Positions 1,953 to 49,765 of a stretch of 64,000 nucleotides of DNA are shown here, in pieces. Below the pieces are notes generated by a model that was not told where the DNA came from, ran no database searches, and saw only the letters and a program-made list of their open reading frames with translations. Source of the DNA: a phage; the NCBI GenBank assembly GCA_021537435.1, contig GCA_021537435.1_3050.1; one strand, given 5' to 3'. Made by a program: the position numbers and the translations under genes. Position 1 is the stretch's first letter. Each line of letters begins with the position of its first letter.

Positions 1953-3932
1953 ATGACTTTATTATCTCCGGGCATTGAGCTCAAAGAAACTACGGTTCAA
2001 AGCACCGTGGTTAATAACTCTACTGGTACAGCAGCTTTGGCCGGTAAATTCCAGTGGGGTCCTGCTTTTCAGATTAAACAGGTTACAAATGAAGTAGATT
2101 TAGTTAATACTTTTGGTCAACCAACCGCTGAAACTGCTGACTATTTTATGTCTGCGATGAATTTCTTGCAGTACGGAAATGACTTACGAGTAGTTCGTGC
2201 TGTTGATAGAGATACCGCTAAAAACTCATCGCCAATTGCTGGTAATATTGAATACACAATTTCTACCCCAGGTAGTAACTACGCGGTTGGAGATAAAATC
2301 ACGGTTAAATATGTTTCAGATGATATTGAAACTGAAGGTAAAATTACTGAAGTAGACGCAGATGGAAAAATTAAGAAAATTAATATTCCTACTGCAAAAA
2401 TTATCGCTAAAGCGAAAGAAGTTGGTGAATATCCAACACTAGGTTCTAACTGGACTGCGGAAATTTCTTCGTCTTCCTCTGGTTTAGCTGCAGTAATAAC
2501 TCTTGGAAAAATTATTACTGATTCTGGTATTTTATTAGCTGAAATTGAAAATGCTGAAGCTGCTATGACAGCGGTTGACTTTCAAGCAAATCTCGAAAAA
2601 TACGGAATTCCAGGAGTAGTAGCTCTTTATCCAGGCGAATTAGGCGATAAAATTGAAATTGAAATCGTATCTAAAGCTGACTACGCAAAAGGAGCTTCTG
2701 CATTACTCCCAATTTATCCAGGTGGTGGTACTCGTGCATCTACTGCTAAAGCAGTGTTTGGATATGGACCACAAACTGATTCACAGTATGCTATTATAGT
2801 TCGTCGTAATGATGCTATTGTTCAAAGCGTTGTTCTTTCAACTAAGCGTGGTGAAAAAGATATTTACGATAGTAACATCTATATCGATGACTTTTTCGCA
2901 AAAGGTGGTTCAGAATATATTTTTGCAACTGCACAAAACTGGCCAGAAGGCTTCTCTGGAATTTTAACTCTGTCTGGTGGATTATCATCAAATGCTGAAG
3001 TAACAGCAGGAGATTTGATGGAAGCTTGGGACTTCTTTGCTGACCGTGAATCTGTTGACGTTCAGCTGTTTATTGCGGGTTCTTGTGCCGGTGAATCTTT
3101 AGAAACAGCATCTACTGTCCAAAAACACGTCGTTTCAATTGGGGATGCTCGCCAAGATTGCTTAGTATTGTGCTCACCACCGCGTGAAACTGTAGTTGGA
3201 ATTCCTGTAACTCGTGCAGTAGATAATTTAGTTAACTGGAGAACTGCAGCAGGTTCATACACTGATAATAACTTTAATATCAGTTCAACCTATGCAGCAA
3301 TCGACGGCAACTACAAATATCAGTATGACAAATATAATGATGTGAATCGTTGGGTTCCATTAGCAGCTGATATTGCTGGTTTATGCGCAAGAACTGATAA
3401 CGTATCTCAGACTTGGATGTCACCAGCTGGTTATAATCGTGGTCAGATTCTTAACGTTATTAAACTTGCTATTGAAACTCGCCAGGCTCAGCGCGACCGT
3501 TTATACCAAGAAGCTATCAACCCGGTAACTGGTACAGGTGGCGATGGTTACGTATTGTACGGTGATAAAACAGCTACTTCTGTTCCTTCTCCGTTTGATC
3601 GTATTAACGTTCGTCGTCTGTTTAATATGTTGAAAACGAATATCGGACGTAGTTCAAAATATCGTTTGTTCGAATTAAACAACGCGTTTACTCGTTCATC
3701 ATTCCGCACAGAAACTGCCCAGTACTTACAGGGAATTAAAGCTCTCGGTGGAATTTATGAATATCGTGTAGTTTGCGATACAACAAATAATACTCCGTCA
3801 GTAATTGATAGAAATGAGTTTGTTGCAACATTCTACATCCAACCTGCACGCAGTATAAATTATATCCAACTTAACTTCGTTGCGACTGCTACTGGTGCAG
3901 ATTTCGATGAGTTGACTGGTCTTGCAGGTTAA
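1953..3932 (+). CDS. 18: contractile tail sheath protein gp18
   Basis: 659-aa ORF directly after gene 17; length and position as T4 gp18; SD AAAGAGGA upstream. Confidence 0.9.
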   Translation: MTLLSPGIELKETTVQSTVVNNSTGTAALAGKFQWGPAFQIKQVTNEVDLVNTFGQPTAETADYFMSAMNFLQYGNDLRVVRAVDRDTAKNSSPIAGNIEYTISTPGSNYAVGDKITVKYVSDDIETEGKITEVDADGKIKKINIPTAKIIAKAKEVGEYPTLGSNWTAEISSSSSGLAAVITLGKIITDSGILLAEIENAEAAMTAVDFQANLEKYGIPGVVALYPGELGDKIEIEIVSKADYAKGASALLPIYPGGGTRASTAKAVFGYGPQTDSQYAIIVRRNDAIVQSVVLSTKRGEKDIYDSNIYIDDFFAKGGSEYIFATAQNWPEGFSGILTLSGGLSSNAEVTAGDLMEAWDFFADRESVDVQLFIAGSCAGESLETASTVQKHVVSIGDARQDCLVLCSPPRETVVGIPVTRAVDNLVNWRTAAGSYTDNNFNISSTYAAIDGNYKYQYDKYNDVNRWVPLAADIAGLCARTDNVSQTWMSPAGYNRGQILNVIKLAIETRQAQRDRLYQEAINPVTGTGGDGYVLYGDKTATSVPSPFDRINVRRLFNMLKTNIGRSSKYRLFELNNAFTRSSFRTETAQYLQGIKALGGIYEYRVVCDTTNNTPSVIDRNEFVATFYIQPARSINYIQLNFVATATGADFDELTGLAG

Positions 3933-14388: not shown

Positions 14389-15069
14389 TTATTTTAATGT
14401 TACGAAAGAAGAATTGCGTGTTTCACGAATTAAAACTGATCCGTCACGGTTAATGTAATAAATTAAGCTAAATAAAGTTTGGTGTGCTGACGCGTGTTCA
14501 AAACTAGTTGGGTGAGATTTCCAATCAGGAGTTTCAGCAATCCATTGATAAATCCACCAAGGAACGGTACAAAATCCTGGATTTTTTCCAATCAGCTGAA
14601 GATTCGGACTAAAGTTTTCCGGAAGAGTAAATACAGACGGCTTTTCAGATTCAATAATCTCAGCTACAGCCTGTTCGAATTTTTCTTCAACAAAAGGAGT
14701 GTCTTCAATCAAAACATCAGTATTTTCAGGAATTTTATCCGTTTCTACTACTTCAATTTTAATGTCAGATTTAACCGGAGAATCAATCAGAAGTGCTGCT
14801 TCTGGATTGACTTCTTCATCGTCATATTTTAATCCCTCTGCGACATCAGCAGCATCAATTAAGTCTTTAATAGATAACCCATCAGTCTCTGGCATAGGTT
14901 CACTAGCGAGCTTCTGGAGGGCTTCTTCAATATCAGCAACGATATTATCAAAAGATTTATTCTTTTTGACCTTTATACCAAACTGTTCAGCATATTCAGC
15001 TAATTTAGCTTTAGCTTCTTTATTATCATCAAGAGCCTTCAGCTCTGCAATATAATCTTTATCTATCAT
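14389..15069 (-). CDS. inh: inhibitor of prohead protease (Inh)
   Basis: 226-aa ORF immediately upstream of hoc on the minus strand; SD GAGGAAA before the ATG. Confidence 0.8.
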   Translation of the reverse strand: MIDKDYIAELKALDDNKEAKAKLAEYAEQFGIKVKKNKSFDNIVADIEEALQKLASEPMPETDGLSIKDLIDAADVAEGLKYDDEEVNPEAALLIDSPVKSDIKIEVVETDKIPENTDVLIEDTPFVEEKFEQAVAEIIESEKPSVFTLPENFSPNLQLIGKNPGFCTVPWWIYQWIAETPDWKSHPTSFEHASAHQTLFSLIYYINRDGSVLIRETRNSSFVTLK

Positions 15070-15082
15070 AATATTTCCTCAG

Positions 15083-15090
15083 TATAAATA
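15083..15090 (+). promoter_or_regulatory. late promoter motif TATAAATA (uvsW)
   Basis: Exact match ~30 nt upstream of uvsW. Confidence 0.55.
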
Positions 15091-15119
15091 TAGATATATT
15101 TATTACATGGTATTTAGAC

Positions 15120-16631
15120 ATGACTGACATTAAAGTACATTTTTATGATTTTAGTCACGTGAGAATTGATTGTGAAGAAAGTACATTTCATGAACTCCGT
15201 GATTTCTTTAGCTTTGAAGCTGATGGGTATCGTTTTAATCCGAAGTACAGATATGGCCACTGGGATGGACGAATCCGTCTGTTAGATTATAATCGTCTTC
15301 TTCCATTCGGCTTAGTCGGGCAAATTAAAAAATTCTGTGATAACTTTGGCTATAAAGCCTGGATTGACCCGCAAATTAACGAAAAAGAAGAATTATCAAG
15401 AAAAGATTTTGATGAATGGCTTTCTAAATTAGAAATCTATTCAGGAAATAAAAGAATTGAACCACACTGGTATCAAAAAGATGCAGTGTTCGAAGGATTA
15501 GTTAATCGTCGTAGAATTCTTAATCTTCCAACATCCGCTGGTAAATCATTAATTCAAGCTTTGCTTGCGCGATATTATTTGGAAAATTATGAAGGTAAAA
15601 TTCTTATCATTGTTCCAACAACTGCCTTAACAACTCAGATGGCTGATGACTTCGTCGACTATCGTCTATTCAGTCATGCAATGATAAAGAAAATTGGTGG
15701 CGGAGCATCAAAAGATGATAAATATAAAAATGATGCACCAGTCGTCGTTGGTACATGGCAAACTGTAGTTAAACAACCAAAAGAATGGTTCTCACAGTTT
15801 GGAATGATGATGAATGATGAATGCCATCTTGCTACTGGAAAAAGTATTTCATCTATCATATCAGGTTTAAATAACTGTATGTTTAAATTTGGTTTATCTG
15901 GTTCATTACGTGATGGCAAAGCCAATATCATGCAGTATGTTGGAATGTTTGGTGAAATATTTAAGCCGGTAACGACCTCTAAATTAATGGAAGATGGACA
16001 AGTAACTGAGTTAAAAATTAATAGCATTTTTCTTCGCTATCCCGATGAGTTCACTACTAAATTAAAGGGAAAAACTTATCAAGAAGAAATAAAAATTATT
16101 ACTGGGCTCAGTAAAAGAAATAAATGGATCGCTAAATTAGCTATTAAGCTTGCGCAAAAAGATGAAAACGCTTTTGTCATGTTTAAACATGTATCACATG
16201 GTAAAGCTATTTTCGATTTAATTAAAAATGAATACGATAAAGTTTATTACGTATCAGGGGAAGTTGATACCGAAACCCGCAATATAATGAAAACCTTAGC
16301 TGAAAATGGTAAAGGAATAATTATAGTAGCTAGTTATGGTGTATTTTCTACTGGTATTTCAGTTAAAAATCTGCATCACGTTGTTTTAGCGCACGGTGTT
16401 AAATCTAAAATTATTGTATTGCAAACAATAGGTCGCGTATTACGTAAGCATGGTTCTAAGACAATAGCAACCGTCTGGGACCTCATAGATGACGCGGGCG
16501 TAGTTTCTAAATCAAAAACATCTTCTAAAAAATACTCGCATTTAAACTATCTTTTAAAACATGGACTTGATCGTATTCAGCGTTATGCTGATGAAAAGTT
16601 TAATTATGTGATGAAAGAGGTTAAACTTTGA
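15120..16631 (+). CDS. uvsW: UvsW SF2 DNA/RNA helicase
   Basis: 503 aa; Walker A PTSAGKS, DECH box (MNDECHL); late promoter TATAAATA at 15083-15090. Confidence 0.93.
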   Translation: MTDIKVHFYDFSHVRIDCEESTFHELRDFFSFEADGYRFNPKYRYGHWDGRIRLLDYNRLLPFGLVGQIKKFCDNFGYKAWIDPQINEKEELSRKDFDEWLSKLEIYSGNKRIEPHWYQKDAVFEGLVNRRRILNLPTSAGKSLIQALLARYYLENYEGKILIIVPTTALTTQMADDFVDYRLFSHAMIKKIGGGASKDDKYKNDAPVVVGTWQTVVKQPKEWFSQFGMMMNDECHLATGKSISSIISGLNNCMFKFGLSGSLRDGKANIMQYVGMFGEIFKPVTTSKLMEDGQVTELKINSIFLRYPDEFTTKLKGKTYQEEIKIITGLSKRNKWIAKLAIKLAQKDENAFVMFKHVSHGKAIFDLIKNEYDKVYYVSGEVDTETRNIMKTLAENGKGIIIVASYGVFSTGISVKNLHHVVLAHGVKSKIIVLQTIGRVLRKHGSKTIATVWDLIDDAGVVSKSKTSSKKYSHLNYLLKHGLDRIQRYADEKFNYVMKEVKL

Positions 16632-17320
16632 ATTATAAATTAATATATGATAATTTAATTAATAGAGCCCAGAATCGGGCTCGCCTTAATGGATACACTG
16701 AAACACATCATATAATTCCTAGATGTATGGGTGGTACAAATGATAAGTGTAATTTAGTAGAACTAACGGCTGAAGAACATTTTATAGCCCATAAACTTTT
16801 AGCTAAAATTCATCCAAACCATTACGGTATAATTAAAGCTGTTATATGTATGGGGATGAATTCAAATACTCATGAAAGACACGTCAATAAATCTTACGCA
16901 TGGGAACGTCGTAAAATGGCAGAACTTCAATCCGGCGAAGGTAATCCATTTTACGGAAAACACCATACGGAAGAACATAAACAATATATGTCAAAACTCA
17001 TGAAAAGTCGTCCAATTACATGGGGAAATAAAATTAGTAAAACTAAAAGAATGAACCCAACGAAATGGACTGAAGAAGCTAAAAGATTACATTCAATCAA
17101 TCAATCGGGTAAAAATAACGGCATGTATGGAAGGAAACATTCCGCTAAATCTATTCAGAAAATTAAAGATAACATGCCAGATAATTCAGGAGCTAATAAC
17201 CCAGCTGCTAAACCTATAGAAGTAAATGGTGTTAAGTATAAATGTATGAAAGATGCTTCTAAAGCTACTGGATTATCAATGTACAAACTAAGAATACTTA
17301 GAAAAACAGTTAATTTATAA
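16628..17320 (+). CDS. HNH homing endonuclease-like protein with NUMOD-type DNA-binding repeats (TTG start)
   Basis: 230-aa ORF; HNH core HHIIPRCMGG…N…EEHFIAH; two GxxNPxYGKHH-like repeats; no in-frame ATG upstream of the HNH motif, but TTG at 16628 follows SD AAAGAGG by 6 nt and overlaps the uvsW stop. Confidence 0.8.
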   Translation: MNYKLIYDNLINRAQNRARLNGYTETHHIIPRCMGGTNDKCNLVELTAEEHFIAHKLLAKIHPNHYGIIKAVICMGMNSNTHERHVNKSYAWERRKMAELQSGEGNPFYGKHHTEEHKQYMSKLMKSRPITWGNKISKTKRMNPTKWTEEAKRLHSINQSGKNNGMYGRKHSAKSIQKIKDNMPDNSGANNPAAKPIEVNGVKYKCMKDASKATGLSMYKLRILRKTVNL

Positions 17321-17334
17321 GGGCTTCGGCCCTT
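17319..17334 (+). terminator. hairpin immediately after the HNH ORF stop
   Basis: AAGGGC-ttcg-GCCCTT; weak U tract. Confidence 0.35.
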
Positions 17335-17345
17335 TGGAGAAAAAG

Positions 17346-17576
17346 ATGTTACTAGAATTTAAACAATTTCTTTATGAAGCTTCTATTGATGAATTTATGG
17401 GTAAAATTGCCTCTTGTCAAACATTAGAAGGTTTAGAAGAACTTGAAGCTTATTATAAGAAAAGAGTTAAAGAAACTGAATTAAAAGATACTGATGACAT
17501 CTCAGTCAGAGATGCTTTGGCAGGAAAAAGAGCTGAATTAGAAGATTCAGACGATGAAGTAGAAGAAAGCTTTTAA
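17346..17576 (+). CDS. UvsW.1-like small protein
   Basis: ORF track starts at TTG 17334; the ATG at 17346 (MLLEFKQFLYEAS…) gives 76 aa, matching T4 UvsW.1 as I recall it. Confidence 0.8.
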   Translation: MLLEFKQFLYEASIDEFMGKIASCQTLEGLEELEAYYKKRVKETELKDTDDISVRDALAGKRAELEDSDDEVEESF

Positions 17577-17631
17577 ATTAAAAAAGGCCCAACCAAAAAG
17601 GAAGGGCCAAAACTATAGACTAAAGGTCACA

Positions 17632-17799
17632 CTATAGCAAAAGTTGTGTTTCATTTAATTGTTCTTCCGAACTTTCTGAAACTGGTAGTTCTTTAATGTA
17701 ATTATAACAAGGCCCAGGATGTACAGGACCTTTGTCTGTTTCAACAACCAATGCAGAATCGATTGGAGTTTTACAGACAACACAAATCTTATCTGACAT
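17632..17799 (-). CDS. small Cys-containing protein (uvsY.-2 position), 55 aa
   Basis: Hand-translated: MSDKICVVCKTPIDSALVVETDKGPVHPGPCYNY…; SD GAGGAG 6 nt upstream; below the ORF-track length cut-off. Confidence 0.6.
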   Translation of the reverse strand: MSDKICVVCKTPIDSALVVETDKGPVHPGPCYNYIKELPVSESSEEQLNETQLLL

Positions 17800-17827
17800 G
17801 ATTGTCTCCTCTAAATTATATATCTAT

Positions 17828-18052
17828 TTATATAACTCTCATATGCATATCAATGCCCATATCTTTAGAATAAAAATATTCATCAAGATATCCGGCAAAT
17901 TTTCCTTTAATATAAAGTACATCTTCACCGCATGGGTGGTCGGCCAGGATACGAATATCCTGACGCTTGAGATTATACTTTTTCATTAAGAATTGAATTT
18001 CCGTTTCAAATTCTTCTTCATAATTAAAAGCATCATCAATGCTATATTTCAT
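17828..18052 (-). CDS. hypothetical protein (uvsY.-1 position)
   Basis: 74-aa ORF whose start overlaps the uvsY stop. Confidence 0.65.
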   Translation of the reverse strand: MKYSIDDAFNYEEEFETEIQFLMKKYNLKRQDIRILADHPCGEDVLYIKGKFAGYLDEYFYSKDMGIDMHMRVI

Positions 18053-20356: not shown

Positions 20357-21531
20357 TGAGTATGTTGCAACGCCCCGGATATCCAAATCTCAGCGTTAAA
20401 TTATTTGATAGCTACGACGCTTGGAGTAATAATAGATTTGTTGAATTAGCTGCTACTATTACCACATTAACTATGCGGGATTCTCTTTATGGCCGAAATG
20501 AAGGAATGCTGCAGTTTTATGATTCTAAAAACATCCATACAAAAATGGATGGAAATGAAATAATTCAGATTTCTGTAGCTAATGCAAATGATATTAATAA
20601 TGTTAAAACACGAATTTATGGATGTAAGCATTTTTCCGTGTCAGTAGATTCAAAAGGTGATAACATCATTGCTATTGAATTGGGAACTATTCATTCTATA
20701 GAAAATCTTAAATTTGGTAGACCATTTTTCCCTGATGCGGGTGAATCTATAAAAGAAATGCTTGGCGTCATTTATCAAGACCGTACATTATTAACTCCAG
20801 CGATAAATGCTATAAATGCTTATGTTCCTGATATTCCATGGACTAGCACATTTGAAAACTATTTGTCATATGTAAGAGAAGTTGCTCTAGCTGTAGGAAG
20901 CGACAAATTTGTATTTGTATGGCAAGACATCATGGGAGTTAACATGATGGACTATGATATGATGATAAATCAAGAACCATATCCAATGATTGTCGGTGAG
21001 CCATCTTTAATAGGTCAATTTGTCCAAGAATTAAAATATCCATTAGCATATGATTTTGTTTGGTTGACTAAATCGAATCCTCACAAACGTGACCCAATGA
21101 AAAACGCTACTATCTATGCGCATTCATTTTTAGATTCTTCATTGCCAATGATTACTACAGGAAAGGGTGAAAACTCTATTGTAGTGTCAAGGTCAGGTGC
21201 TTATTCTGAAATGACTTATAGGAATGGATATGAAGAAGCTATTCGTCTTCAAACTATGGCACAATATGACGGCTATGCTAAATGTTCTACTGTCGGTAAT
21301 TTTAACTTGACTCCTGGTGTTAAAATTATTTTTAATGATAGTAAAAACCAATTTAAAACAGAATTTTACGTTGATGAAGTTATCCATGAATTATCCAATA
21401 ATAATTCAGTAACTCATCTATATATGTTCACTAATGCAACGAAACTGGAAACAATAGACCCAGTTAAGGTTAAAAATGAATTTAAATCTGATACTACCAC
21501 TGAAGAAAGTAGTTCTTCCAATAAGCAATAA
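20356..21531 (+). CDS. 27: baseplate hub protein gp27
   Basis: 391 aa, ATGA-overlapped with gene 51. Confidence 0.9.
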
Positions 21532-48749: not shown

Positions 48750-49765
48750 CATTATGTTCAGATAAGGTCGTTAATCTTACCCCGGAATTATATCCAGCTG
48801 CATGTCACCATGCAGATCAGACTATATCTCCAACTTGTTAAAGCAAGTTGTCTATCGTTTCGAGTCACTTGACCCTACTCCCCAAAGGGATAGTCGTTAG
48901 GCATTTATGTAGAACCAATTCCATTTATCAGATTTTACACGATAAGTAACTAATCCAGACGAAATTTTAAAATGTCTAGCTGCATCTGCTGCACAATCAA
49001 AAATAACCCCATCACATGAAATCTTTTTAATATTACTAGGCTTTTTACCTTTCATCTTTTCTGATATTTTAGATTTAGTTATGTCTGAATGCTTATGATT
49101 AAAGAATGAATTATTTTCACCTGAACGATTTCTGCATTTACTACAAGTATAAGCAGAAGTTTGTATGCGAACACCGCACTTACAAAACTTATGGGTTTCT
49201 GGATTCCAACGCCCGTTTTTACTTCCGGGTTTACTGTAAAGAGCTTTCCGACCATCAGGTCCAAGTTTAAGCATCTTAGCTTTAACAGTTTTAGAACGTT
49301 TCTTAATAATTTCTTCTTTTAATGGATGCGTAGAACATGTATCACCAAACGTTGCATCAGCAATATTGTATCCATTAATTTTAGAATTAAGCTCTTTAAT
49401 CCAAAAATTTTCTCGTTCAATAATCAAATCTTTCTCATATGGAATTTCTTCCAAAATAGAACATTCAAACACATTACCATGTTTGTTAAAAGACCTCTGA
49501 AGCTTTATAGAAGAATGGCATCCTTTTTCTAAATCTTTAAAATGCCTCTTCCATCTCTTTTCAAAATCTTTAGCACTTCCTACATATACTTTATTGTTTA
49601 AAGTATTTTTAATCTGATAAATTCCGCTTTTCATAAATACCTCTTTAAATATAGAAGTATTTATTAAAGGGCAGTCCTACAATTTAGCACGGGATTGTCT
49701 ACTAGAGAGGTTCCCCGTTTAGATAGATTACAAGTATAAGTCACCTTATACTCAGGCCTCAATTA
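48750..49765 (-). mobile_element. group I intron in td (1016 nt) carrying I-TevI
   Basis: 5' exon ends …GTTTTCTTGGGT; intron starts TAATTGAGGCCTGAGTATAAGGTGAC…; 3' end …CATAATG; length equals the T4 td intron. Confidence 0.92.
48897..49634 (-). CDS. I-TevI: intron-encoded GIY-YIG homing endonuclease I-TevI
   Basis: 245 aa; MKSGIYQIKNTLNNKVYVGSAKDFEKRWKRH; Cys-rich linker and C-terminal DNA-binding region. Confidence 0.92.
   Translation of the reverse strand: MKSGIYQIKNTLNNKVYVGSAKDFEKRWKRHFKDLEKGCHSSIKLQRSFNKHGNVFECSILEEIPYEKDLIIERENFWIKELNSKINGYNIADATFGDTCSTHPLKEEIIKKRSKTVKAKMLKLGPDGRKALYSKPGSKNGRWNPETHKFCKCGVRIQTSAYTCSKCRNRSGENNSFFNHKHSDITKSKISEKMKGKKPSNIKKISCDGVIFDCAADAARHFKISSGLVTYRVKSDKWNWFYINA

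Follow-up and report, generated by a model that had tools for sequence, protein, structure and literature searches.

A probable Mob-type homing endonuclease gene lodged in the 3′ end of the phage gene uvsW

In the window, i.e., the whole 64,000-nucleotide stretch of phage DNA that was analyzed (contig GCA_021537435.1_3050.1), an additional open reading frame lies at the junction between the helicase gene uvsW and its neighbor uvsW.1. This raises the questions of what protein the frame encodes, how it came to lie there, and whether it is mobile. A preliminary description based on the sequence letters had proposed an HNH homing endonuclease gene (HEG). From the evidence presented here, we conclude that HEG probably encodes a functional homing endonuclease that is free-standing and of the T4 “Mob” type, and that it is inserted near the very end of uvsW. 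The features of the locus are compiled in Table 1.

Table 1. Features at the uvsW–HEG–uvsW.1 locus (positions in the window).
Feature	Position	Strand	Remarks
Late-promoter motif TATAAATA	15083..15090	+	30 nt upstream of uvsW
uvsW helicase gene, 503 aa	15120..16631	+	Ends ...VMKEVKL-stop; native form ...VMKTVNL-stop
uvsW 3′ tract completely linked to HEG	16481..16631	+	Hyperdivergent core 16502-16544
Substitute uvsW tail ATGAAAGAGGTTAAACTTTGA	16611..16631	+	Diverged left copy of native tail; contains SD and TTG
HNH homing endonuclease gene (HEG), Mob-type, free-standing (probable)	16628..17320	+	230 aa; TTG start
Internal hairpin GAGCCC-AGAAUC-GGGCUC	16665..16682	+	37 nt after HEG start; ΔG about −13 kcal/mol
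HNH catalytic motif	16697..16792	+	aa 24-55: TETHHIIPRCMGGTNDKCNLVELTAEEHFIAH
Two NUMOD3 DNA-binding repeats	16907..17182	+	About aa 94-122 (best) and about aa 157-185
C-terminal module, I-TevI DNA-binding-domain-like (minor-groove helix and helix-turn-helix)	17096..17308	+	
Native uvsW tail remnant	17300..17320	+	AGAAAAACAGTTAATTTATAA; T4-type ATGAAAACAGTTAATTTATAA
Hairpin GGGC-UUCG-GCCC (GGGCTTCGGCCC)	17321..17332	+	Native uvsW/uvsW.1 spacer, outside the insert
uvsW.1, 76 aa	17346..17576	+	SD GGAG 17337-17340; sequence identical to HEG-less relatives
Hairpin GGCCC...GGGCC	17586..17608		Between converging uvsW.1 and uvsY.-2; z = −3.8

The 230-residue reading frame and its TTG start, both named in the preliminary description, were borne out, as was the overlap with the uvsW stop codon (TTG at 16628–16630, TGA at 16629–16631; TTGA). 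The TTG start is well supported because the orthologues and T4 MobB–E all begin M-N-Y at exactly that codon. The Shine–Dalgarno (SD) sequence AAAGAGG is present at 16614–16620 as claimed, but it is spaced 7 nt from the TTG and not 6; in orthologues starting with TTG, a strong SD (GAGG) accompanied this codon every time. In-frame ATG codons had been thought to be absent. They do occur, the earliest at codon 34, and all of them are downstream of the catalytic His-His pair. Translation of HEG may be coupled to that of uvsW and proceed at a low level, as suggested before.

The HNH core and the two DNA-binding repeats seen earlier proved to be real. Pfam NUMOD3 matched two stretches of the protein (E = 7.6e-14, 51.8 bits compared with a cut-off of 20.4 bits), of which the second is positioned approximately, i.e., from its GKNNGMYGRKHS motif. 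With the HEG protein alone, Pfam HNH (PF01844) remained under its curated cut-off (E = 0.012, 16.2 compared with 21.4 bits); it matched 35 of 49 homologues at E < 0.01, the best at 3.2e-5. Strong matches were obtained with the PHROG families 655 and 12434 (“homing/HNH endonuclease”), with E = 3.9e-60 for PHROG 655, “homing endonuclease”. In HNH motifs, the general base is a His with which strand 1 ends, an Asn has a structural role, and His residues of the helix bind the metal. The motif of the HEG protein reads ETHHIIPRCMGG..N42..EEH51FIAH55, and H28, N42, H51 and H55 were invariant in the 49 homologues. Profile alignment matched it with the HNH motifs of McrA (McrA HNH, E = 1e-3) and of group II maturases. 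Moreover, the AF2 model of the protein (mean pLDDT 89.5) contains a strand at residues 25–28, a second strand at 43–46 and a helix at 48–61. HNH-family membership, for which a profile search had been put forward as a check, is supported by PHROG 655, by the identity with MobB–E, by the invariant residues and by the predicted core.

BLASTP of the N-terminus found MobE (51% identity, E = 1e-31), MobB (44%), MobD (57%), MobC (43%) and the MobA fragment (62%). For T4 MobB–E, the identity of 43–57% extends over the N-terminal ~105 residues (E values from 1e-19 to 1e-31), and beyond about residue 120 BLASTP found no similarity to T4 MobA–E. The C-terminal module resembles the DNA-binding domain of I-TevI (1i3j), with E = 0.006 and, in a profile-versus-PDB comparison, E = 3.1e-8; 1i3j was also the top Foldseek match of the HEG protein model (probability 1.00). 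With the single HEG sequence, the profile of this domain stayed sub-threshold (14.7 compared with 27 bits). The HEG protein fits the T4 Mob type, i.e., a Mob N-terminal nuclease domain followed by a DNA-binding region of its own at the C-terminus.

The flanking genes were identified by profile matches to PF21241 and helicase domains for UvsW and to PF11637 (E = 1.5e-30) for UvsW.1. HEG had been described as lying precisely between them. The junction is indeed the same, but the insert interrupts uvsW within its last five codons. UvsW now ends in the residues KEVKL and a stop codon supplied by the insert, and the native tail KTVNL with its stop codon now terminates the endonuclease frame, where it encodes the last residues, (R)KTVNL. 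In T4, which has no HEG, the uvsW 3′ end and junction read ...AATTACGTAATGAAAACAGTTAATTTATAAGGGC... The GC hairpin reported after the HEG stop exists as well, but it is the hairpin of the native spacer and is unchanged in HEG-less genomes.

HEG is already known as a gene. It is annotated as “homing endonuclease” in phage T6, where it is found at 99.9% identity (AP018814 EcT6_00183; NC_054907), and in many RefSeq records. Yersinia phage PST carries a copy labeled “mobD” with the note “MobE”, and Shigella phage SP18 also has the gene. In the searchable literature, we found no paper describing this endonuclease and no experiment on its protein. T4, for which the uvsW|uvsW.1 junction was to be checked, does not contain the gene there. 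Carriers made up 49 of about 500 Tequatrovirus records. T6-type copies occupied the same position with 97–100% protein identity, and orthologues from Dhakavirus and from Klebsiella, Morganella and Proteus phages were found at the same junction with 53–70% identity. We inspected 12 HEG-bearing loci, from Tequatrovirus, Dhakavirus, Klebsiella phage Roth16, Morganella phage Rgz1 and two metagenomic contigs, and all of them showed the uvsW|uvsW.1 junction and an NTGA start/stop overlap. HEG is a presence/absence polymorphism at one fixed site among close relatives. In total, 75 intact full-length orthologues were found, each adjoining uvsW and each in one piece, and dN/dS between close pairs was 0.05–0.10. 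Purifying selection of this strength argues for an active HEG.

Presence of HEG is completely linked to the sequence of the uvsW 3′ tract. Compared with HEG-less Tequatroviruses, this tract contains about 45 differences per 150 nt, whereas elsewhere we found 0–5 per 100 nt; among HEG-bearing genomes there were almost no differences. The linked block in the window comprises 16481–17302, and to its right the sequence does not differ from empty genomes. In three genera, HEG-bearing and HEG-less relatives shared 97–99% identity in mid-uvsW, compared with 73–85% over the last 190 nt. We regard positions 16481–16631 as a candidate co-conversion and self-immunity tract, and the population-level pattern suggests that flanking donor sequence was co-converted with HEG. 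A donor tract common to the genera was not found, i.e., HEG-bearing uvsW tracts were no more alike than their hosts, and the comparison hence shows a shared site rather than transfer between genera. What recurs among HEG-bearing lineages is limited to a short signature at the amino-acid level, S-K-[TDN]-S compared with S-A-N-x and a Glu at tail position −5, which could be due to shared ancestry or convergence. Because the residues encoded by the hyperdivergent core are still the native ones in the Roth16-type lineage, no single immunity polymorphism common to all lineages emerged.

These data also bear on the alternative that HEG is a nuclease that no longer homes and was retained for a benefit to the phage, e.g., damage to co-infecting competitors (marker exclusion or interference) or a role tied to UvsW and UvsW.1. 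Strong purifying selection and the intactness of 75 of 75 copies would agree with retention, and HEG divergence that roughly follows host divergence between genera fits long vertical residence. However, the gene is patchy within Tequatrovirus (about 10% of records) and belongs to a sharply bounded foreign haplotype block, and both are the expected products of recent horizontal spread by gene conversion. Interference is moreover compatible with homing, because cleavage of HEG-less genomes yields both. We therefore consider retention without homing unlikely.

Even less probable, to a degree that leaves it little weight, is a decaying, inactive relic similar to T4 mobA or I-TevIII that is mobilized only in trans or never. 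Many T4 homing endonuclease genes are defective, with mobA annotated as a 37-aa fragment and I-TevIII as a deletion; poor expression would fit the weak TTG start, and in the L012 orthologue an R replaces the first His of the HH pair. By contrast, all 75 copies are full length, the catalytic residues are invariant in the 49 homologues, dN/dS is low as given above, and the TTG starts are always paired with their strong SD. An intron- or intein-type insertion into one split helicase gene has a negligible probability and is already refuted as far as sequence analysis goes: it is suggested by the labels “uvsW-A / uvsW-B” and “group I intron endonuclease” in PST and vB_EcoM_G8/G28 and by a sub-threshold NCBIfam “group I intron endonuclease” match to the DNA-binding part (30 compared with 56 bits), but uvsW and uvsW.1 are separate reading frames with an intervening stop codon in every HEG-less phage examined (also PMC1524935), and at the left junction endonuclease and uvsW are in different frames. 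A comparison of positions 15000–17800 with Rfam gave no match, group I introns included, and a fused UvsW–UvsW.1 protein was found neither by word-indexed search nor when 1.84 billion representatives were searched exhaustively with a profile. With two reading frames in all T4-like phages examined and no fused protein, we also found no support for a uvsW/uvsW.1 split created by the endonuclease (“genes in pieces”). HEG is thus free-standing, with a start of its own and outside any intron or intein.

For a functional homing endonuclease, expression signals are of interest. The exact motif TATAAATA upstream of uvsW is the presumed promoter of a uvsW–HEG–uvsW.1 transcript, since no other exact late motif precedes 17825 on the + strand. 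It was found at the same place in eight of eight other HEG-bearing loci checked. Scans for sigma70-like promoters and for terminators gave signals at background only. The transcript presumably ends at the hairpin between uvsW.1 and uvsY.-2, which corresponds to a conserved bidirectional terminator in T4-like phages (PMC1524935). The best regulatory evidence comes less from the features named in the preliminary description than from the conserved hairpin inside HEG, which is homologous to the mobE terminator. It was present at +33..+55 in all seven orthologue lineages (ΔG −12 to −15, z −2.6 to −4.4), with stem sequences that differ and covary, and its position is that of the weak intrinsic terminator of T4 mobE mapped by 3′ RACE (PMC2790892). 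Termination at the HEG hairpin is uncertain because the U-tract following it is poor.

Two further regulatory elements were considered. In the window, an 11-bp A/U-rich stem covers part of the SD and the TTG (ΔG −8.7 to −10.6, z −1.2), but in other lineages folding of the start region was weak (−2 to −5 kcal/mol) and inconsistent, and an RBS-sequestering hairpin as in Aeh1 mobE or I-TevI is hence not supported. The Dhakavirus and L012 lineages alone carry an exact TATAAATA at +430, a possible lead to an internal late promoter that would restore uvsW.1 expression. HEG in the window contains one-mismatch late motifs only, e.g., TATAAATG at 17237. Motifs of this kind are common in AT-rich DNA.

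To place HEG among known systems, we compared it with the endonucleases of T4. T4 MobE is a free-standing HNH homing endonuclease located between nrdA and nrdB (Wilson & Edgell 2009, PMC2790892). It is promoterless and co-transcribed with the upstream gene; its nick falls in nrdB, about 120 nt away from where mobE is inserted, and polymorphisms give protection (PMC2790892). HEG and MobE are 51% identical over the first 106 aa and 72% over the 5′ 188 nt. Both begin M-N-Y, have a start that overlaps the upstream stop and no promoter of their own, and form a stable hairpin some 30 nt inside the reading frame, the mapped weak terminator in mobE. Moreover, in each case the neighboring essential gene contains a polymorphic tract at a distance of about 100 nt from the insertion. 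In contrast, the C-termini differ, with two NUMOD3 repeats and an I-TevI-like helix-turn-helix in HEG; T4 MobE as annotated has 141 aa in all. HEG is found at the 3′ end of uvsW with a TTG start, MobE at the 5′ end of nrdB with an ATG start, and the HEG element takes the place of the last upstream codons, the native codons now forming its own end.

T4 MobB, MobC and MobD share the Mob-type N-terminal nuclease domain (43–57%, E values from 1e-19 to 1e-25) and, like HEG, are free-standing and tightly packed against their neighbors. Their C-termini are unrelated, however, their insertion sites differ, and mobB, mobC and mobD do not have the +33..+55 hairpin. I-HmuI (1U3E), with weak similarity to the HEG protein, and I-TevI (1I3J) are both intron-encoded, and the I-TevI nuclease is of the GIY-YIG and not the HNH type. 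T4 SegE has uvsW as its target gene (PMC2988022), i.e., the same host gene as proposed for HEG, and segE-bearing and segE-less phages differ by 20–28% in the first ~150 nt of uvsW, which mirrors the HEG 3′ tract. SegE belongs to the unrelated GIY-YIG family, however, and is located between inh and uvsW at the opposite uvsW end. This segE site had been described as empty, and segE is indeed absent from the window. HEG is nevertheless not an alternative occupant of the segE neighborhood, as had been considered, because T6 and PST carry both genes together.

We therefore propose the following course for homing by HEG. The gene would be transcribed late together with uvsW from TATAAATA and translated from the TTG overlapping the uvsW stop, with the SD supplied by the substitute tail that would have arrived with the element. 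Its output is probably throttled by the conserved +37 hairpin, homologous to the mobE internal terminator. The enzyme is predicted to consist of an N-terminal HNH (beta-beta-alpha-metal) nuclease followed by the two NUMOD3 repeats and the I-TevI-like helix-turn-helix, which would read a long DNA site. In mixed infections, it would nick or cut the uvsW 3′ end of a HEG-less phage, at a target that may span the insertion point or fall within ~130 nt upstream. Recombinational repair would then transfer HEG to the recipient, together with the substitute tail and donor uvsW sequence of about 150 nt. The carrier itself is proposed to be immune, since its site is both interrupted and rewritten.

Beyond homing as such, we tentatively suggest, as a possibility that falls short of being probable, that the mobile unit is a composite cassette made up of a rewritten stretch of the uvsW 3′ end (about 150 nt), the substitute tail providing RBS and start, and the reading frame with its attenuator hairpin, which uses one site in at least five T4-like genera. 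As part of the same suggestion, this Mob subfamily would possess a general, so far unrecognized self-limiting device in the covarying +33..+55 hairpin, which mobE shares and which would also modulate the downstream host gene, i.e., uvsW.1 here and nrdB in the case of mobE. The hairpin would extend the single experimentally mapped mobE terminator to the whole subfamily.

Given its annotation in T6 and RefSeq and its membership in the well-studied Mob class, the gene itself is of little import. Its locus is a sixth Mob-type site, where the T4 reviews consulted list mobA–E only, and the insertion rewrites and reuses the end of the essential recombination helicase gene uvsW. For homing specialists, the multi-genus orthologues at the same site and the sharply bounded linked haplotype provide a clean natural example. 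For annotators, the locus shows that “uvsW-A/uvsW-B”, “mobD” and “group I intron endonuclease” are misleading names for its genes. The window differs from T6 in that T6 has segE and a mobE homologue, both of which the window lacks, and HEG itself does not differ.

The TTG-start ORF of 230 residues that the preliminary description had placed between uvsW and uvsW.1 was present at 16628..17320 (+). Its overlap with the uvsW stop and the strong Shine-Dalgarno (SD) sequence were also found, the latter at a spacing of 7 nt rather than 6. In-frame ATG codons, said to be absent, do exist, but the first is codon 34 and all lie 3′ of the catalytic His pair. As seven orthologue lineages and T4 MobB-E moreover have their start at precisely this position, with the residues M/L-N(K)-Y, sequence comparison makes TTG 16628 a well-supported start. 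ATG occupies the position in three of the seven uvsW-junction lineages. Start and uvsW stop overlap as NTGA in all lineages; GAGG lies 7 nt upstream in all four TTG lineages, and no good SD was found in the three ATG lineages. A conserved hairpin masking the ribosome-binding site was not supported across lineages.

Features of the uvsW–uvsW.1 region and of related loci (L-numbers, comparison loci)
Feature	Position	Strand	Remarks
uvsW	15120-16631	+	503 aa; Pfam UvsW_N E=5e-43 and helicase domains
SD AAAGAGG	16614-16620	+	7 nt before TTG
TTG start	16628-16630	+	overlaps uvsW stop TGA 16629-16631
Endonuclease ORF	16628..17320	+	230 aa, TTG start (ORF listing)
Internal hairpin	16665-16682	+	at position of mobE terminator
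uvsW.1	ATG at 17346	+	76 aa; PF11637 E=1.5e-30
Hairpin copy	L004 2474-2492
Hairpin copy	L009 3032-3051
Hairpin copy	L007 3038-3057
Hairpin copy	L011 3037-3056
Hairpin copy	L012 3033-3052
Hairpin copy, T4 mobE	L039 ~20363-20384	minus
Tequatrovirus empty junction			...TAC GTA ATG AAA ACA GTT AAT TTA TAA, then GGGCTTCGGCCC
Tequatrovirus filled, left end			...TAT GTG ATG AAA GAG GTT AAA CTT TGA, then endonuclease body
Tequatrovirus filled, right end			endonuclease body, then CTT AGA AAA ACA GTT AAT TTA TAA, then GGGCTTCGGCCC

The claimed HNH core was borne out by four residues invariant in 49 homologues (H28, N42, H51, H55), by PHROG 655 'homing endonuclease' (E=3.9e-60) and by the McrA HNH motif (E=1e-3), even though the Pfam HNH match was weak (E=0.012, under the curated cut-off). 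Pfam NUMOD3 matched twice (E=7.6e-14). The profile search of solved structures that returned McrA also gave the I-TevI DNA-binding domain (E=3e-8) and, at E=0.017, the HNH motif of a group II maturase. In the AlphaFold model, whose mean pLDDT is 89.5, strands 25-28 and 43-46 and helix 48-61 form a predicted β-β-α core, followed by putative helical NUMOD-type repeats and, at the C-terminus, a strand-strand-helix-helix unit. Over the N-terminal ~105 aa, identity is 57% to T4 MobD, 51% to MobE, 44% to MobB and 43% to MobC, whereas the C-terminal halves are unrelated, i.e., the defining pattern of Mob genes (PMC2988022). The gene thus belongs with the free-standing HNH genes of Mob type, in a place that is vacant in T4. 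Against an intron or intein speak the lack of an Rfam match and the fact that every empty genome has uvsW and uvsW.1 as two ORFs. A decaying relic is contradicted by intact copies and by selection, with dN/dS (Nei-Gojobori) of 0.05-0.10 in close pairs (window/L014, L005/L009) and 0.1-0.4 in distant pairs, which are saturated.

By megablast, 49 phage records cover all of 16000-17900 at 97.6-99.1% identity, including T6 (AP018814, NC_054907, MH550421) and Yersinia phage PST. Since the flanks have matches in about 500 records (≥90% identity), roughly one in ten Tequatrovirus records carries the gene. Its absence from the T4 junction was confirmed, as T4 has one contiguous sequence that aligns with both 15126-16616 and 17303-17700 of the window. 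Its novelty had been overestimated: the T6 copy shares 99.9% identity and the TTG-start coordinates and goes by 'homing endonuclease' in its record, in PST the gene is called 'mobD', with 'MobE' as a note, and further records have 'group I intron endonuclease' or 'hypothetical'. Judged from sequence, it is the homing endonuclease gene of the Mob family known from T6, which public genomes already annotate, and the preliminary description and reading were essentially right. The T4 reviews consulted name mobA-E only and no uvsW/uvsW.1 endonuclease, and a literature search found no paper on it. What is added here is modest: a tail duplication, a linked tract, same-site orthologues and a mobE-like hairpin.

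A large protein search returned a tight full-length group (54-100% identity, 224-233 aa) with a sharp fall to ≤45% beyond. Every member with inspected context lies between uvsW and uvsW.1, i.e., in Klebsiella phage Roth16, Dhakaviruses ESCO10, UP19 and PSD2002, Morganella phage Rgz1 and two metagenomic contigs. With tblastn on a phage collection, 75 records held an intact single-piece orthologue, and the helicase adjoins it in all matches listed. That the endonuclease had split one gene into uvsW and uvsW.1 found no support: fused UvsW-UvsW.1 occurred in 0 of 1.84 billion representatives and was not found in an indexed search.

Comparison of filled and empty junctions, i.e., with and without the gene, revealed that the uvsW tail occurs twice in filled Tequatrovirus genomes. 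The left copy has diverged, gives the UvsW end KEVKL* and holds SD and TTG; the right copy is native and supplies the last endonuclease residues (KTVNL) and the stop. The native Dhakavirus tail MKQVDL* likewise ends the endonuclease in filled genomes, where UvsW ends in MKEVQI*, and the Roth16 group has a shorter duplication. The GC hairpin described after the endonuclease stop is present but belongs to the native spacer, outside the insert. In the T4 RefSeq record NC_000866 an old sequencing error persists at this junction (L003 4165-4205), which reads TTAATAAGCTTCGGCCC versus TTATAAGGGCTTCGGCCC in T4-like genomes; the fused 587-aa UvsW annotated as a result can mislead junction comparisons.

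Filled and empty Tequatroviruses differ at 0-5 nt per 100 nt over most of uvsW and at 16-20 per 100 nt in its last ~150-200 nt. Differences common against two empty genomes span about 16481 to 16631, with a hyperdivergent core at 16502-16544, and filled genomes are near-identical to each other over this tract. On the right side, the filled and an empty genome differ up to 17504 only in the two bases that make ATG into AGA. The left-sided asymmetry recurs in two further genera: identity between filled and empty genomes drops from 97% in mid-uvsW to 73-83% in the last 190 nt in Dhakaviruses, and from 99% to 85% in the Roth16 group. The tract looks like co-conversion from a foreign donor and suggests an endonuclease target at, or left of, the insertion point, because carriers would still have an unaltered copy of any site lying entirely on the right.

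At the other end of uvsW (window 15120-15300), genomes with segE (T4, T6) differ from those without (window, L014, L015) by ~20-28% over the first ~150 nt and by <5% deeper into the gene. SegE's known target fits this divergence (PMC2988022), which resembles a tract of co-conversion or immunity linked to SegE and is the mirror image of the 3′ tract. The segE site is indeed empty here, as the inh-uvsW spacer (15070-15119) has only 50 nt. The idea of a different endonuclease using the same neighbourhood needs amending, since T6 and PST have both genes, which therefore assort independently. A third endonuclease seems to exploit the region in one Dhakavirus-like metagenomic contig (L010), where a 232-aa TTG-start ORF (2897-3595, minus strand) with GIY-YIG-like and NUMOD3-like motifs lies between uvsY.-2 and uvsY, instead of the small ORF that related genomes have at the uvsY.-1 position. 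The 64 kb contain no further nuclease domain of Mob type, e.g., mobE; the sole second tblastn match of the HNH protein in the window is the C-terminal DNA-binding domain of a 245-aa ORF (48897-49634, minus strand; MKSGIYQIKN...), which we take from its sequence to be I-TevI, the td intron GIY-YIG endonuclease.

The only exact late-promoter motif on the plus strand up to 17825 lies at 15083, just upstream of uvsW, with none in 15090-17825; it is conserved in all other lineages. A sigma-70-like promoter scan stayed at background level. We infer that the gene would be co-transcribed with uvsW, with coupled initiation at the overlapping TTG. MobE is likewise promoterless and co-transcribed with nrdA, and a 9-bp hairpin 27 nt into mobE is a weak intrinsic terminator by 3′ RACE and RNase protection (PMC2790892). 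The most interesting expression detail is the corresponding hairpin: all seven uvsW-junction lineages have a G+C-rich stem of 6-8 bp at +33..+55 (ΔG -12 to -15 kcal/mol), with different stem sequences, the gene's strongest in five and equal or nearly equal to it in two. Covariation shows it to be conserved in T4 mobE as well as in every HNH gene of the uvsW junction, and it is absent from T4 mobB, mobC and mobD. The amino acids across it are not conserved and are near-palindromic (e.g., R-A-Q-x-R-A, R-S-R-K-A-S), as though the RNA had shaped them. As the following U-tract is poor everywhere, the hairpin may act in attenuation, stability or translation. If it terminates, late-like motifs in the 3′ half of the gene, indistinguishable from chance, could feed uvsW.1, by analogy with the nrdB promoter inside mobE: the window has TATAAATG at 17237-17244, and the Dhakavirus and L012 lineages have the exact motif TATAAATA at +430 (3430-3437 in both L009 and L012).

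The UvsW.1 domain (PF11637) is also N-terminal in proteins of 260-300 aa (P0214-P0229), which correspond to PHROG 14207. Three others tested had no second domain; the remainder of P0214 is weakly cytidylyltransferase-like (PF01467, E=0.0017), and these long proteins might hint at what UvsW.1 binds.
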